This document shows positions 8,244 to 62,779 of a stretch of 64,000 nucleotides of DNA, piece after piece (position 1 is the stretch's first letter; each line of letters starts with the position of its first letter). Where the stretch lies: contig JBFMGU010000011.1 in the NCBI GenBank assembly GCA_040752415.1, positions 13,033-77,032 on the forward strand. The letters are read 5' to 3'. The stretch comes from Myxococcota bacterium (GTDB lineage: Bacteria; Myxococcota; JACRCW01). Both the position numbers and the translations under genes were made by a program. A model generated the notes under the pieces. It was not told where the DNA came from and ran no database searches. It worked only from the letters and a program-made list of their open reading frames with translations.

Positions 8244-8472
8244 ACGTCGTGAGCGGACCACAACCTGGAGTGCGGCGGGCCCTCGCCGCCCTGGTCAGCG
8301 CCGCGCGGCTCCCTGCACCCGTCAAGGGTCCACCCTCCCGGAGACGCGGTCGCGCATCCACCGGCGCGGTGACGCTCGGGGTCGTTGCACCAGATCCCGT
8401 CGGGGACGCCCGCGACGCTGGCCCGGGCGGTGACAGGCCGCCGCACTCCAGGTCGTGGCCCGCTCACGACGT
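8244..8472. repeat. REPIN/MITE-like inverted doublet (TGGAGTGCGGCGG class)
   Basis: 35-bp arms at 8244-8278 and 8438-8472 are inverted repeats with 2 mismatches; weaker similarity continues inward; a further copy starts at 63863. Confidence 0.8.
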
Positions 8473-13783: not shown

Positions 13784-16497
13784 GCGCCGCCCTCGTCGGA
13801 TCCGCCGGTGCCGTTGGTGCCGTGTCCGCCGTCGCCGGCCTCGGCATCCACGCCGTTGCCGGCCGTCTCGCCGTTGCCCGTGGTCTCCCCGGGCGGGGGC
13901 AGGCCGGCCATGCGCAGCTCCACGGTGGCCGGGTCGCTGTCCTCGCGCTCGGCCAGGCGGGCCACGCTCACCACGCGGTCACCTTCCTCCACCGCAATCA
14001 GGCGCACGCCCTGGGTGTTGCGGCCAATGAGGCTGATCTCGTCGGCGCGGGTGCGGATCAGGGTGCCGCCGCTGGTGACGATCATGACCTCGTCGCCGTC
14101 CTTGACCTGCACCAGGCCGGCCACCGGGCCGTTGCGGTCGGTGGTCTTGATGGTGATGAGGCCCTTCCCGCCGCGGTTCTGCCGCCGGTACTCCTCGATG
14201 GCGGTGCGCTTGCCGTAGCCGCGCTCGGTCACGGTCAGCACGGTGGCGTGGGCGTCCAACACCTCCATGCCCACCACCTCGTCGCCGTCCACCAGCTCGA
14301 CGCCGCGCACCCCCACCGCGGCCCGACCCATGGCCCGCACATCCGACTCATGGAACCGGATGGCCATGCCGTGGCGGGTGGCCAGGAGGATGTCGTTGTC
14401 GCCGCCGGTGACGTGGGCGGCAATGAGGCTGTCGCCCTCATCAATGCCGCAGGCAATCAGGCCGGACTGGCGCGGGTTGGAGTACTGCGTGAGGTCGGTC
14501 TTCTTCACCGTGCCCTTGCGGGAGCAGGTGATCACGAACTGCTTGCCTTCCTCCTCGGGGAACTTGCGCACCGGCAGGATGGCGCGCACGCGCTCACCCT
14601 CTTCCAACTGCACCAGGTTCACAATCGCCTTGCCCTTGGAGGCCGGGCCGCTCTCCGGCACCTCGTGGACCTTGACCCAGTAGACCTTGCCCTTGTCGGT
14701 GAAGGTCAGCAGGTAGGCGTGGGTGGAGGCCACGAACAGGTCCTCCACGAAATCATCCTCTTTGGTGGCCGCCGCACCCTTGCCGCGCCCACCGCGACGC
14801 TGCGCGCGGTAGTTGGAGAGCGCGCTGCGCTTCACGTAGCCGGCGTGGGTGACGGTGACCACCATCTCCTCCTCGGCGATGAGGTCCTCCACCGAGAGGT
14901 CGTCCACGTCGGGCATGAGCTGGGTGCGACGCGGGTCCGCGAACCGGGTCCTGATGTCCTTCAGCTCGTCCTTGATGACGTTCATGAGCAGGACGGGGCT
15001 GGCCAGGATGGCGCGCAGGCGGGCAATCAGCTCCTGCACCTCCTTGGCCTCGGTGACCAGCTTGTCGCGCTCCAGGCCGGTGAGGCGGGAGAGCCGCATC
15101 TCCAGGATGGCTTTGACCTGCAGCTCGTTCATCTGGAAGAAGCCGCGCTGGATGGCGTGCACCACCTGCGGCACCTCCGCCTCCACGAACTGCGGGAGCT
15201 TGCCCAGGTTGCCGCTGAACTTCTCGGCCAGCAGGCGGTCGCGTGCCTCCTCGGGGTCCTTGCTGCTGCGGATGATGTCGATCACGCGGTCAATGTGGTC
15301 CACCGCGATGATGAGACCGAGCAACAGGTTGAAGCGCGCCTCCGCCTCATTGAGCTCGAAGCGCGTGCGCCGTCCCACCACCTCCCGACGGTGATTGACG
15401 AAGAAGGTGATGAGGTCGCGCAGCGGCAGCACCTTGGGCTGACCGCCCACGATGGCCAGGTTGATGACGCCAAAGGTGGTCTGCAGCGGGGTGTGCTTGT
15501 AGAGCTGGTTGAGCACCACCTCGCCAATGGCGTCGCGCTTGAGGTCAATGGCGATGCGCATGCCGTCGCGGTCGGACTCGTCGCGGATGTCGCTGATGCC
15601 TTCCAGCTTCTTGTCCCGCACCAGCTCGGCCATGCGCTCAATGAGCTTGGCCTTGTTCACCTGGTAGGGAATCTCGTCGATGATGATCTGGCTGCGGCCC
15701 TTCTCCCGCTCCTCCACGCGCGCCTTGCCGCGGATCTTCAGCATGCCGCGACCGGTGGAGTACGCGTCGTACACGCCGGCGCTGCCGCACAGGTAGCCGC
15801 CGGTGGGGAAGTCCGGGCCGGGCATGAGCTGCATCAGCTCCCGCACGGTGATGTCCGGCTTCTCGATGACGGCCAGGATGGCGTCGATGACCTCCCCCAG
15901 GTTGTGGGGCGGCATCTTGGTGGCCATGCCCACGGCAATGCCTTCACTGCCGTTGACCAGCAGGTTGGGCACCTTGGAGGGGAGCACCGAGGGCTCGTGG
16001 GTGGTCTCGTCGAAATTCGCGACCATGTCCACGGTTTCCTTCTCGATGTCGGCGAGCAGCTCCTCGGCCAGCTTGGTGAGCCGGCTCTCGGTGTAGCGGT
16101 AGGCCGCGGCGGGGTCTCCGTCGACGGAGCCGAAGTTCCCCTGGCCGTCAATCAGCGTGTAGCGGACGTTCCACTCCTGCGCGAGACGCACCATGGCGTC
16201 GTAGACGGCGGAGTCACCGTGGGGGTGGTACTTCTTGAGCACCTCACCCACCACGCCGGCGCACTTGCTGTACTTGCGGTTGCTGAGCAGCCCCTCGTCG
16301 TACATCGCGTACAGGATGCGACGGTGCACCGGCTTGAGTCCGTCGCGCACGTCGGGCAGGGCGCGCCCGATGATGACGGACATGGAGTAGTCCAGGTAGC
16401 TGCGCCGCATCTCGTCGTCCATGGGGACGGGCTGGGCGGGACGCGCGGCGGGGGCACCGGGAGGCGGGTTGTTCGGCGGATTGAGTTCGTCGGTCAT
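13780..16497 (-). CDS. gyrA: DNA gyrase subunit A
   Basis: [34 protein letters not shown] (catalytic Tyr) and GyrA box QRRGGRG. Confidence 0.98.
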
Positions 16498-24858: not shown

Positions 24859-26553
24859 ATGCGCGTTCACCGGCAGTCGTGGGCTCTGCTCGTCCTGCTT
24901 TCTTGGGCTTGCAGGGACGAGGGACAGGTTCCTGATCCACAACAGGAGGCCGCGGCACCTGAAAGCCCGCAGGGGGATCCAGAGCCGACGGAGCCGAATT
25001 CGACGCGTGGACAGGCAGGCTGGGGTCATGACAACCGTGAGACGCCACGCCGCCTCGCGACCCAACCGCCCGCTCCCACCGCCCAGGACGCCGGTGTTGT
25101 CATGGACGCCGGCATTGACTCGGTTGCCACCGACCCAGGGGACGCCGCCGTGTTGGGAGACGCTGGGACCGTGGATGCCGCCATCCCAGACAACTCATCC
25201 GCCGTCATGGACGTGGCGCAGTGCCTCCCTGTCCCGACTTTGAAACCCGGTTGCGGAGCCGAGCGCTGCGGCAATGGCGTCGTGGACGGGTTCTGTCCCG
25301 TGAATGATCCTGAGGCGGACCGGGAGAGCTTCCGCTCCGAGACATGCGACACCGACCTGGGTGCAGGGAGCTGCTCCGGGCTTGGGTATTCGGGCGGAGA
25401 GCTCGTTTGTGGTTCCTGGTGCGGTTACGACGTCCGCGGGTGCAATCCATGCGGTGAGCATGAGCTCATCCATGCTTGCAAAGTGCTCGACGTGGAGGCG
25501 TCGGCGGCGCACGATCTCGCGGTCGCCGTCCGTGGTGATCGCATTGGTGTGGCGTGGACCCAATACGGGCCGGACGGGGCGGGAGAAGATCTCAATCACA
25601 CCGAACAGTACGTGCGGTTCGCGCTGGTTGATGAGAGCTTCAACGTCGAGGTTGAGCGGTGTCTGGCGATTCCGTTCGCGCGATGGGTGAACCTGGTTCC
25701 CACGGAGAATGGGTGGTTGTTGGGGGTCGTGTCGTTTGGTGACGACGGCGGGACCTTCTATGACACGCTGAAGTTCCAAGTGATCCCGCTGGACCCCGTG
25801 GGGCAGGTCGTGGGGCCGGCTGGAATGACGATCCACAGCCATCTACGGGCTTTGGTCGCCAGCCCGCATGGCAATCTTTTGTTGTGGCACGCGCCGGGGT
25901 CGGAACTCCGAGGTGCCCTCTTGGATGACGCCGGTGCTCCGCTTTGGGAAACCACCGTCTTGAATTCGTTGAGCCACGAAGAGTTGGATGCCACCTACGC
26001 CGACGGAAAGTTCGTTGTTGTGGACCGCGTCAATTCAGAGGTGACTCTGACAATCGTGAGCCTTGACGGCGAGGTTGGACCGGAGTTGGTGTGGCCCGTT
26101 GAGAGGGCGTCCCGTGCTCGGCTGGCAATCTACGGGCAACGCATCTTTGTGACGTGGGTAGATGCACTGAACAACGACGTCTACCAAGGAAGCACGGACC
26201 TTGACGAGCAGGTCATCACTGCAGGCGTGCGGATTGTCGAGGGCCTTGGGCGCTCCTACGGATTCTCCCCGCTTGTCGCTACGGCGAACGGCAACATCGT
26301 TCTCCTCACCCGGAGCGGCTGGAGATACCCACGCGTTTCAACGGAATTGGAGGTGGCACCCGTCGACGTCAATGGCGTCGCCTTGTCGGATGTCTTCTTG
26401 CCGAGACATGACCCGCTGCCCGCGTTCGGGATGAACGTCAACGCTTTTCGTGATTGCGCTTTGCTGGGCTGGATCGCGGGCGGTGTTCCCTCGGGAGGGG
26501 CGCTGGAGCGGGACTTCACCCGGCGAATCCAGCTGGTGCGAATCTGCCTCTGA
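24859..26553 (+). CDS. hypothetical lipoprotein with a myxobacterial Cys-rich module and a beta-rich C-terminus
   Basis: LSWAC lipobox; CGNGVVDG...ETCD...C.GLGY.GGEL.C; visibly more A/T-ending codons than the flanks. Confidence 0.7.
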   Translation: MRVHRQSWALLVLLSWACRDEGQVPDPQQEAAAPESPQGDPEPTEPNSTRGQAGWGHDNRETPRRLATQPPAPTAQDAGVVMDAGIDSVATDPGDAAVLGDAGTVDAAIPDNSSAVMDVAQCLPVPTLKPGCGAERCGNGVVDGFCPVNDPEADRESFRSETCDTDLGAGSCSGLGYSGGELVCGSWCGYDVRGCNPCGEHELIHACKVLDVEASAAHDLAVAVRGDRIGVAWTQYGPDGAGEDLNHTEQYVRFALVDESFNVEVERCLAIPFARWVNLVPTENGWLLGVVSFGDDGGTFYDTLKFQVIPLDPVGQVVGPAGMTIHSHLRALVASPHGNLLLWHAPGSELRGALLDDAGAPLWETTVLNSLSHEELDATYADGKFVVVDRVNSEVTLTIVSLDGEVGPELVWPVERASRARLAIYGQRIFVTWVDALNNDVYQGSTDLDEQVITAGVRIVEGLGRSYGFSPLVATANGNIVLLTRSGWRYPRVSTELEVAPVDVNGVALSDVFLPRHDPLPAFGMNVNAFRDCALLGWIAGGVPSGGALERDFTRRIQLVRICL

Positions 26554-26607: not shown

Positions 26608-27231
26608 TCACCCGGCCAGGAGCGCCGCTTCAAGGACACCCAGGGCCCCGCAGACAGCGAACCAGGCACGTTGTCGACGCTCCGTGCTCTGCGCATAACC
26701 GCCCCACGACGCGAGCAGGGCGACGGCGGAGCAGGCACCCAACGCGAGAGCCACCGTCACCCGCACCTGCGTCCCGAAACCCGACGCCACGAGCAGGAAG
26801 TACACGATCCACGAGAGCGCCGAGAAGGCCCATCCCCACGCGGCCAACGTGGCGAATGCGGGACGCTGCGCGGACGCGGTGGCGGTGAGTCCGACGAGAA
26901 CCGCGAAGGGAATCCCCCAGACCGCACCCACGGAGAGCTGGAAGAATGCGTGGTCGAGGTCAGGGAGACCGTACCGGATGAAGGCCACACCCATGGGCAT
27001 CATGGCGACGAGGAATCCCGCCATCACAGTGCGACCGCCTTCCCGGCGCCGACCGGTGACCACCATGTGCGCGGCGAACAACAGCGCGGTCACGACCAGT
27101 ACGCCGTGGGTGCAGGGTGTGAGCTCGCGGTCGTACCCGACGAGGGACGGCAGTCCGCTCTGCCCCAGCACATGCGCCGCGGACAGCGCCGTGGCGTAGA
27201 CCCCGAGGGCAAAGCCAGTTCCCCAGCGCAT
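26608..27231 (-). CDS. hypothetical multi-pass membrane protein
   Basis: About 6-7 hydrophobic segments; GGAGG RBS before MRWGTG. Confidence 0.6.
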   Translation of the reverse strand: MRWGTGFALGVYATALSAAHVLGQSGLPSLVGYDRELTPCTHGVLVVTALLFAAHMVVTGRRREGGRTVMAGFLVAMMPMGVAFIRYGLPDLDHAFFQLSVGAVWGIPFAVLVGLTATASAQRPAFATLAAWGWAFSALSWIVYFLLVASGFGTQVRVTVALALGACSAVALLASWGGYAQSTERRQRAWFAVCGALGVLEAALLAG

Positions 27232-27325
27232 TCGCGTCACCTCCGTCCGCGCGTCAACCCACGGCCGGAAGCAGAGGATTCCCAACGGGGATGGCGTCGC
27301 CCCCCATGGAGCGCGGGAGCGTGAC

Positions 27326-28321
27326 TCAGGATGCAACGGGCCGACGTGACGCTGAACGAGAGGGCGTCGTCGCATCGACACCGGCAACGGCAACTACTGC
27401 GTCACCCGCTTCGCGCGGAACGGAGAGTGCGCCGACGACCAGGGCAACCTCTACCAGCTCCCGTGCAGTGAGGGCCTGGAGTGCAGCCCGACCCACCAGG
27501 ACGCGAATGACGCCCCGGTTGGCGGCGCCTGCCACATCAGCTGCGGCTACGGTGACACCACCCCGGATTGCCCCGCCAACGAGCAGTGCTTCGTGGAGCC
27601 GGGCCTCTCGGGGTACGGCCAGGCGCAGGTGGCACCACTGGTCGGCGTCGCAGGTGTCCTGTCCGCCGGCGGTGGTGCACGAGGCAAGGCAGGTGCCCTG
27701 GACGCACGTCAGGTTGCCGTCGCACTGCGGGGCGTTGGCGCGGCAGGGCCCTTCCTCAGTGCCCTCGACGACGCCGCCGCTGCTGGAGGAGCTGCCACCC
27801 GAGGAGCTGCTGCTGCCGCCCGAGGAGCTGCTGCTGCCCGGCGTGCCGCTGGAGGAGCTGCTGCTGGCGCCCGAGGAGCTGCTGCTGCCCGGCGTGCCCG
27901 ACGACGAGCTGCTGCCCGGCGTGCCGCTGGAGGAGCTGCTGGTGCCCACGTCTCCGCTGCTGGAGCTGGTCCCCGTGCCGCCGTTGCTGGAGCTGCTGGT
28001 GCCCACGTCCCCGCTGCTGCTGGAGCTGCTGGAGGACGACGAGCTGGAGCTGCTGGAGGACGACGACGAGCTGCTGCTGGAGGAGGTCACGCCCGAGCTG
28101 CTGCTGGACGCCTCACCCGAGGAGGACGACGTGCCCGACACCGCTCCGCTGCTGGACGACGTGCTGCCGCTGCTGGAGGACGAGGTGCTGCCCGTGCCAC
28201 CGGTGGAGGTGCTGCTGGAGGTGCTGGTGTCGGTGGTGCCGCCGGTACCGCTGCACGCACCCACCATGCCCGCAGCGCACACCAGGAGCGCCGCATTCAT
28301 CTGGGACCATTTCATACGCAT
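27326..28321 (-). pseudogene. Ser-rich/Cys-rich lipoprotein gene with an internal inverted segment (27374-27631)
   Basis: MVGAC lipobox, long poly-Ser tract and a Cys-rich domain that turns into antisense-like text after DQWC, while the + strand carries the Cys-rich continuation. Confidence 0.7.
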
Positions 28322-28579
28322 CGCATTGTCTCCCAACGCCGGGGGCGTGTGGGCCCCCCGCGGATTTCTTCGCAGACCACCATGTCCGCGCCAGAGGCAG
28401 CGCGATTACCAAGCCAATTCCTGAAACGCAACAACCGGTTACGCCCGGGTCCCGGCCACCCGGGGTCCCCCGGTGGAAACGCCCCCGCCCAACCGACATC
28501 AAACCCCCGGGGCGCCTGGTGCTAAGCTGCCCCGTCCATCGGTCGTTCCCAACCCCGCACCGTTTCCAGGAGTCCGAAG

Positions 28580-62030: not shown

Positions 62031-62330
62031 GCTTCCCGACTCTCCTTGGCGGTGCGGAATCCCGCATCCGTCCCGCACGACGTGCGGATGGGCTCGCAGC
62101 CTAGCAGTCCCGCGCTCTCAGGGGTCAAGCCGGACTTCCACGCTCAACCCATGTAGGACGCGTGGCATTCCCGGGCGACGGGGCGACGGAGGGTCCAACC
62201 GGTGTGGAGCACGGCACCCGGGACGTTGCACGGCAGGACTTCGGCGCTGGCGGCGACGACGCGATGGTGACGTCGGAGAACGGCGCTCTCTGGATGCACG
62301 ATCAGACCGGTATCCAGGCGCGTGAACCGA

Positions 62331-62581
62331 CGCCGCAGCCGTAGGGGCTAGGCTTTTCCACGTCGTGGCAGCGACGAGAGGGGAAGGAAATGCCTAGCCC
62401 GGGGCCGACGGAGCCACGCCGTCATCCCCAATGTCCCCCCACGCAACCCGGGTGCGTGGTGAGCATCCCTCTTGGACGCGCTGCTTCACTCGAGGAAGAC
62501 TTCGTGGCCCCGGGCTAGGCATTTCCTTCCGCTCTCGTCGCTGCCACGACGTGGAAAAGCCTAGCCCCTACGGCTGCGGCG
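62331..62581. repeat. REPIN-like inverted doublet of GTAG-type palindromes
   Basis: 76-bp arms at 62331-62406 and 62506-62581 (1 mismatch); each arm reads GTAG-GGGCTAGGC...GCCTAGCCC. Confidence 0.85.
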
Positions 62582-62779
62582 CCAGCTCACGCCCTGGATA
62601 CTGGCAGCACGAGTCCTCCCCGGCCCTTGCCGTGACGACGTCAGATGGCCAGACAGTAGTAGCGTGGTTTCCGATCAGGTTGACCACAGATTGCTCACCG
62701 GGCCGCATCGTCGCGGATCAACGGAAGGAACCCGGAGCAACAGGGGATCCAGGGTGTCCACGCGAAACGGAATGCCACC

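Follow-up and report, generated by a model that had tools for sequence, protein, structure and literature searches.

An apparent 258-bp inversion inside a Ser/Cys-rich lipoprotein gene of a Myxococcota bacterium

Introduction

Shufflons and invertible segments of the Cin/Gin/Rci type carry alternative coding sequence on both strands, together with crossover repeats and an adjacent recombinase. In this study, we analyzed a stretch of 64,000 nucleotides from the draft genome of a Myxococcota bacterium (GTDB lineage Bacteria; Myxococcota; JACRCW01; assembly GCA_040752415.1, contig JBFMGU010000011.1, positions 13,033 to 77,032 of the forward strand), referred to below as the window. It contains a Cys-rich lipoprotein gene on the - strand with a 258-bp coding segment at 27374-27631 that appears to be inverted; all positions are those of the window unless a contig is named. 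The locus resembles the shufflon and Cin/Gin/Rci type in having a constant N-terminal part and a flippable 3' segment of a surface protein, while alternative coding, crossover repeats and an adjacent recombinase (PF00589 or PF00239) are all absent here.

Small fixed inversions in decaying genes share several features with this locus, namely a short flip within the gene, the lack of a recombinase nearby and the presence of a second lesion.

Other inversions have been described in more specific settings. Intragenic invertons, as described by Chanin et al. (PMC10028968), are defined by a pair of inverted repeats recognized by an invertase and by the coexistence of both orientations. The present locus likewise has its inversion within the coding sequence of a surface-related gene, similar in length to some invertons, and the protein is recoded. 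It differs in that the repeats are absent and no invertase is found nearby. Microinversions attributed to template switching measure 17-33 nt in the work of Potapova, Kondrashov and Mirkin (2022, PMC8755829), and all are flanked by perfect or near-perfect inverted repeats. They have in common with our locus a precise replacement of the sequence by its reverse complement in place, which here spans 258 bp and lacks the repeats. Lasken and Stockwell (2007, PMC1855051) found that chimeras arising in multiple-displacement amplification mostly consist of inverted sequence with a deletion in between, and that more than 70% of their junctions used 2-21 nt. Inverted orientation, neighboring missing sequence and little homology at the junctions are shared features. 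Their chimeras are single-junction events, mostly primed by 2-21 nt, whereas the flip described here has two junctions that are reciprocal within 1 nt and occurs in a draft of high completeness.

Results

The + strand of 27374-27631 encodes 86 residues without a stop codon, running from IDTGNGNYC to GQAQV. The frame has no boundaries of its own. A TGA lies upstream at 27353-27355, none of the six codons between it and position 27374 (encoding T R G R R R) is an ATG, GTG or TTG, and the end of the segment carries no stop codon. This confirms the earlier observation that the frame has a stop at 27353 and lacks a start. The GC content at third codon positions of the + frame is 0.87-0.93 inside the segment, and at about 27600-27630 the signal is handed over to the third positions of the - strand gene.

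To define the extent of the segment, we used a codon log-odds model trained on 4095 long open reading frames (ORFs) of the same genome, which gives means of +0.64 bits per codon for coding frames and -0.66 for the other five frames. The maximal-scoring segment of the + frame is exactly 27374-27631, with 55.7 bits over 86 codons (0.65 bits per codon). Over this interval, none of the remaining five frames scores above -17 bits. The coding character and strong third-position GC bias claimed for this interval in the initial annotation are thus borne out, its coordinates to the base, and it was the strand-aware codon scoring that located the segment with this precision. The segment is pristine, with full codon bias and no stops. 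We considered an independent small gene on the + strand and rejected it: the frame has neither a start nor a terminal stop, and its sequence is a central portion of a family domain that begins on the - strand.

On that strand, 28336..27326 is a 336-codon open frame. We took the ATG at 28321 as the start (TTG at 28336 or ATG at 28315 could serve instead), which places the 5' part of the lipoprotein gene, comprising the signal peptide, a Ser-rich linker and the first Cys-rich module, at 27632..28321 (-). The N-terminus is lipoprotein-like, with a hydrophobic leader closing in ...VGAC; this lipobox-like motif was assigned by eye. The leader is followed by the Ser-rich linker of approximately 170 residues and by a Cys-rich stretch that closes with ...TCDADQWC at 27632. 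The remaining 98 residues are antisense-looking and have no coding character, as the ORF runs through the inverted segment as nonsense until the stop TGA at 27326..27328 (-). Our translation agrees with the earlier description of the gene as normal up to ...TCDADQWC and antisense-like beyond. In its present state, the locus can only give a lipoprotein whose Cys-rich domain consists of the first module alone, with about 100 nonsense residues behind it. The gene has probably lost its function.

The orientation of the two pieces can be assessed from a paralogue in the same genome, a 480-residue lipoprotein on contig C474 (P0003). The last 53 residues of the - strand part align to its residues 74-114 (50% identity, E 2e-8), and the alignment stops exactly at the junction. 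The + strand segment aligns to residues 121-191 (33% identity, E 1e-6). In the converse search, tblastn with the core of the paralogue against the window places its positions 14-63 at 27757..27596 (-) and positions 61-138 at 27389..27637 (+), with no further match to the core in the window at E<0.8. The 258-bp segment therefore corresponds to the next Cys-rich module of the same family. A second paralogue lies adjacent to it on this contig, at 14400-15269, and is 28% identical to the first (L008, 631-2073).

A phmmer search with the paralogue core against 1.84 billion representative proteins returned only 18 proteins at E<=1e-3. In seven of them (P0007, P0008, P0009, P0010, P0012, P0016 and P0018) both pieces match at E<1e-3 and are directly adjacent, with the N-terminal part first. 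In each of the remaining 11, at least one piece has no match at E<1e-3; many of these representatives are short at the N-terminus. In P0011, a partial core comes first; the N-part match follows it and is itself followed by a weak match to the fragment, as in a tandem second copy. The same one-strand order is kept at the loci of relatives, clearly in L008 and L011 and more weakly in L012 and L015. The signal peptide with lipobox and the Ser-rich linker at the N-terminus also resemble, by eye, those of P0003, P0008 and P0012. The family match L013 (G001:C154:1340-2431), the best in the only relative from the same taxonomic family, contains two TGA codons inside the match and may be broken or frameshifted.

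From the 18 proteins we built a profile of 332 positions. Positions 2-59 are found on the - strand of the locus (E 1.6e-8) and positions 64 to approximately 135 on the + strand (E 5e-12), so the locus does not present the contiguous one-strand core of about 332 profile positions. Both junctions fall inside the Cys-rich core of the family, and the inversion lies wholly within one gene. Judged by these alignments, the 258-bp segment is flipped relative to the family order, and the locus appears to be a rearranged remnant of a Ser/Cys-rich lipoprotein family member. Turning the segment around joins it in frame to ...DQWC, as had been proposed; the frame is kept across the flip because the segment measures 258 = 86 x 3 nt, and the resulting order is that of the family.

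Searches of Pfam and NCBIfam with the gene, the fragment and three relatives revealed no named family. The sole match, to Dickkopf_N in the paralogue, is sub-threshold (E 0.013). The family is a very small, unnamed and lineage-restricted group of Ser/Cys-rich lipoproteins.

At the right junction (27631..27632), the - strand TGC that encodes the Cys of ...DQWC abuts the reverse complement of the last codon of the segment, GTG. At the left junction (27373..27374), base 27374 is used twice, as the + segment starts with it and so does a Cys codon on the - strand. Relative to a perfect flip, one nucleotide is missing here, which is equivalent to joining on a 1-nt overlap. Beyond it lies a coding-like remnant of 16 codons, CDDALSFSVTSARCIL (27327..27374, -), which opens with TGC at 27374-27372; its frame and that of the flipped segment differ by 1 nt. 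This offset frame scores +6.3 bits over the 16 codons, versus -16.8 for the in-phase alternative, and the next 29 codons score -26.8. The position of the first Cys of the remnant matches that of a Cys conserved downstream of the module in the profile consensus. Homology of the tail piece was not detected at better than E 0.03 in the loci of relatives, or at E<=1 among the 18 family proteins. The resumption of the - strand frame beyond a small indel, as described in the initial annotation, is recovered with a weak signal.

The junctions show little sequence in common. Exact inverted matches within +-35 nt of the two reach no more than 7 nt, a length attained by 40% of 2000 random site pairs with the same spacing. 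In a local repeat scan the best repeats were of 23-24 nt at 71-74%, and none pairs both junctions. An overlap of about 2 bp had been reported previously; we find at most 1-2 nt, and inverted matches that do not exceed chance. A search of the rest of the genome for a templated source of the 137-nt tail gave only chance matches of up to 17 nt.

The locus differs from the family in a second respect, which was overlooked previously. Profile positions from about 140 to 332 have no match in any frame of 27101-27900, meaning that around 190 family codons, or about 60% of the core, are absent. The spacer to the next gene (27232..27326) looks non-coding, and all six frames score negative over 27230-27350. 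Compared with its relatives, the lipoprotein gene thus appears to be truncated at the 3' end. With two lesions relative to the family, a flipped middle module and an absent 3' 60%, the gene is best described as a remnant.

The assembly is a draft of 520 contigs with a completeness of 96.8% and a contamination of 4.3%. The region is single-copy, and no contig carries an alternative allele. We searched for the tyrosine recombinase family PF00589 and the serine resolvase/invertase family PF00239. The former has nine matches in the genome, none of them on this contig (C13), while the latter has none in the genome at the given completeness. The absence of a recombinase gene from the window, as noted before, therefore holds for these two families; other recombinase and transposase families were not searched. 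Genes for end-joining are present. Ku (PF02735) is found at C195:5921-6460 (E 1.9e-49), and an 844-codon open frame beside it carries the polymerase and ligase domains of LigD (C195:3348-6460 for both genes together). Three matches to the LigD polymerase (TIGR02778) and one to the ligase (TIGR02779) score above the cut-off, the latter beside Ku. In addition to the polymerase domain beside Ku, three LigD-polymerase-like matches on C72, C42 and C493 point to a rich end-joining repertoire.

To see whether template switching that reverses orientation is a tendency of this genome, we counted long inverted repeats. The census yielded 246 runs of inverted-repeat arms of >=40 nt within 2 kb, which collapse into 201 loci. 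The arms have a median identity of 98% and the loops a median length of 115 nt; loops measure about 50-400 nt and are never <=10 nt. At 199 of the 201 loci, the repeat has five or more other copies in the genome. These long inverted repeats look like families of foldback or miniature-transposon elements and not like one-off products of switching, and we dropped the idea that the genome is prone to orientation-reversing template switching. For 31 of the 246 arm runs, the nearest contig end is no more than 300 nt away. The window itself contains two large inverted-repeat pairs, at 62320-62592 (arms of 87 nt at 95%) and 8244-8472 (70 nt at 83%).

The genome was also screened for further inverted gene pieces, starting from a pool of 6770 segments with a clear signal in their own frame, 141 of which are startless and internal. 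Requiring in addition that the 141 lack a nearby stop left 26 candidates (screen A). Selecting from the pool those segments that lack a nearby stop and run into coding sequence of the opposite strand gave 87 (screen B). On inspection by eye, only the present locus is a convincing inverted gene piece. The other candidates are either low-complexity regions, Ser-rich or acidic, read in antisense, or ordinary secreted proteins whose tails are rich in Ser; the antisense of Ser-rich linkers accounts for most false positives. One or the other screen caught 54 of 300 simulated 258-bp flips placed in genes of this genome, a sensitivity of 18%; as a rough upper limit, the genome would hold about 15 such inversions. 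An initial filter requiring both flanks to be coding on the opposite strand was discarded. Inspected by eye, its 74 candidates were false positives that mainly represented real genes and Ser-rich linkers read in antisense, and the present locus was not among them.

The reverse strand of the Ser-rich linkers, which are built of AGC/TCC-type codons, is rich in Leu, Glu and Asp and scores as strongly coding under the codon-usage model. This applies to 27776-28260 of the window and to similar regions throughout the genome, and such text could mislead gene callers.

Downstream of the remnant, a gene for a multi-pass membrane protein (26608..27231, -) has its own GGAGG motif and an ATG at 27231. Its product resembles 7TMR-DISM_7TM weakly (E 0.0019), without reaching the curated cut-off. 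No orthologous locus of the remnant was found, because this membrane protein has no match in the relatives G001-G003. Other neighbors are a ThiF/rhodanese gene and a gene with a TrkA domain. The upstream neighbor at 24859-26553 (+) encodes 564 residues; the N-terminal part is rich in Cys, Pfam gives no match, and the product may be a lineage-specific secreted protein.

Discussion

We consider it probable that the segment was reversed by a recent, natural and unprogrammed two-break inversion in a decaying gene, with the loss of 1 nt at one junction. Two double-strand breaks would excise the 258-bp piece, which would then be end-joined in reverse with 1 nt lost on one side. The gene would either have been decaying already, or a single complex event would have flipped the segment and deleted the rest. 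A second lesion at the same spot suits a decaying gene as well as a complex break-repair event. End-joining is preferred because the flip is balanced and repeat-free and because Ku and LigD are present. With at most a few profile positions lost per junction and 1 nt unaccounted for, the flip would fit the re-ligation of a single excised piece better than two independent jumps that are reciprocal within 1 nt. The lack of an inverted repeat at the junctions argues against recombinase-driven, homologous or graph-ambiguity origins. Of the natural inactivating inversion put forward in the initial annotation, the inversion itself is supported by collinearity with the paralogue and the profile, whereas we infer the inactivation and the natural origin.

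The same result could in principle be reached by replication template switching, following the four-point model or microhomology-mediated break-induced replication. Template switching is able to invert a sequence in place, according to PMC8755829. Microhomology priming could account for the 1-nt overlap at the left junction, and the adjacent deletion fits switching in several steps. End-joining and template switching cannot be told apart by sequence alone. At 258 bp and without a flanking inverted repeat, however, the segment is unlike the 17-33 nt microinversions described there, and a genome in which nearly all long inverted repeats are multi-copy gives no sign of a proneness to switching. 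We regard this route as improbable. Taken together, a natural event by either mechanism is probable to a slightly higher degree than end-joining considered separately, and the flip would then be present in the DNA of the organism and not in the assembly alone. Another possibility is that the native gene has the normal family order and that the flip was produced in vitro, for example by phi29 template switching during amplification, or in silico during assembly or polishing. The draft state of the genome in 520 contigs, its contamination and the complete lack of decay in the segment would be in line with such a chimera. Contigs built from de Bruijn graphs hold only k-mers derived from reads, and a flip cannot be invented without inverted k-mers shared by the junctions. 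Such k-mers are absent here, leaving no ambiguity in the assembly graph. An amplification chimera would need two reciprocal junctions that match within 1 nt, as a single chimeric jump should leave one junction and continue on the wrong strand. The overlap of at most 1-2 nt is shorter than the 2-21 nt used by most amplification junctions in PMC1855051. In addition, the high completeness speaks against a single-cell amplified genome, and the genome-wide screens, at their sensitivity of 18%, revealed no second inverted coding piece, so such events are not pervasive. An artefact is therefore unlikely, although it deserves to be taken seriously.

The locus could also work as an intragenic inverton or in the manner of a shufflon, so that the C-terminal part of a surface lipoprotein would alternate; a switchable C-terminus had been suggested in the initial annotation. 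Surface-type lipoproteins are a class that is often phase-variable, the segment is a whole number of codons, and either orientation gives an open frame of 336 codons with the same TGA. Intragenic invertons that recode genes are known, as PMC10028968 documents, and a distant tyrosine recombinase could possibly act on the segment in trans. The inverted repeats that define invertons in that account are nevertheless missing, with no inverted match beyond chance. The antisense reading carries no coding signal, its best frame reaching only -17 bits, and its being open is to be expected, as at a third-position GC near 0.9 the antisense stops aligned with codons would correspond to rare sense codons. 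The genome has no serine recombinase match, and its nine tyrosine recombinase matches are all on other contigs. The neighbors are housekeeping genes. Turning the segment back would still leave the gene incomplete, with 60% of the family core missing and the remnant 1 nt out of phase. A C-terminus that switches cleanly is also less in line with the 3' truncation than gene decay or a complex rearrangement, and a programmed switch is highly improbable. A standing reversible or recurrent flip that dispenses with inverted repeats and a dedicated invertase, for instance by break-and-rejoin at two fragile sites bounding the module, appears less probable still. Any maintained switch is made less likely by the absence of the 3' modules, the frame offset of 1 nt and an opposite orientation devoid of coding signal.

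Several observations weigh against a natural inversion in a decaying gene. The evidence for the flip is at the level of the assembly, with no sequencing run listed for 26900-27760, and no independent sequence in the collections searched confirms the arrangement. A word-indexed search over longer proteins gave no match at E<=0.01, peptide-pattern scans gave 177 matches in metagenome contigs and 152 in genome contigs of which none was confirmed, and an exact look-up of five possible ORF products in the protein collection found none. The pristine state of the segment is predicted equally by a very recent event and by an artefact. If the library was amplified by multiple displacement, inverted chimeras with deletions would be the most frequent error to expect (PMC1855051), and an inversion beside missing sequence resembles them. 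The frame-offset remnant is a weak signal, with 16 codons and +6.3 bits. The truncation is relative, as it is deduced from paralogues at 33-50% identity with no orthologue found, and the gene may be natively short. Finally, Ku and LigD show a capability for end-joining and not the mechanism that acted.

The finding has consequences for annotation. A gene caller would report a 336-residue lipoprotein in which the last 100 residues or so are nonsense, and the relationship of the locus to its family is seen only by reading both strands. If the flip were reversible after all, the locus would represent an unusual repeat-free intragenic switch, that is, intragenic phase variation independent of inverted repeats. 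As a one-off inversion in a decaying gene, it matters little in itself and would be a further example of genes dying by small illegitimate rearrangements.

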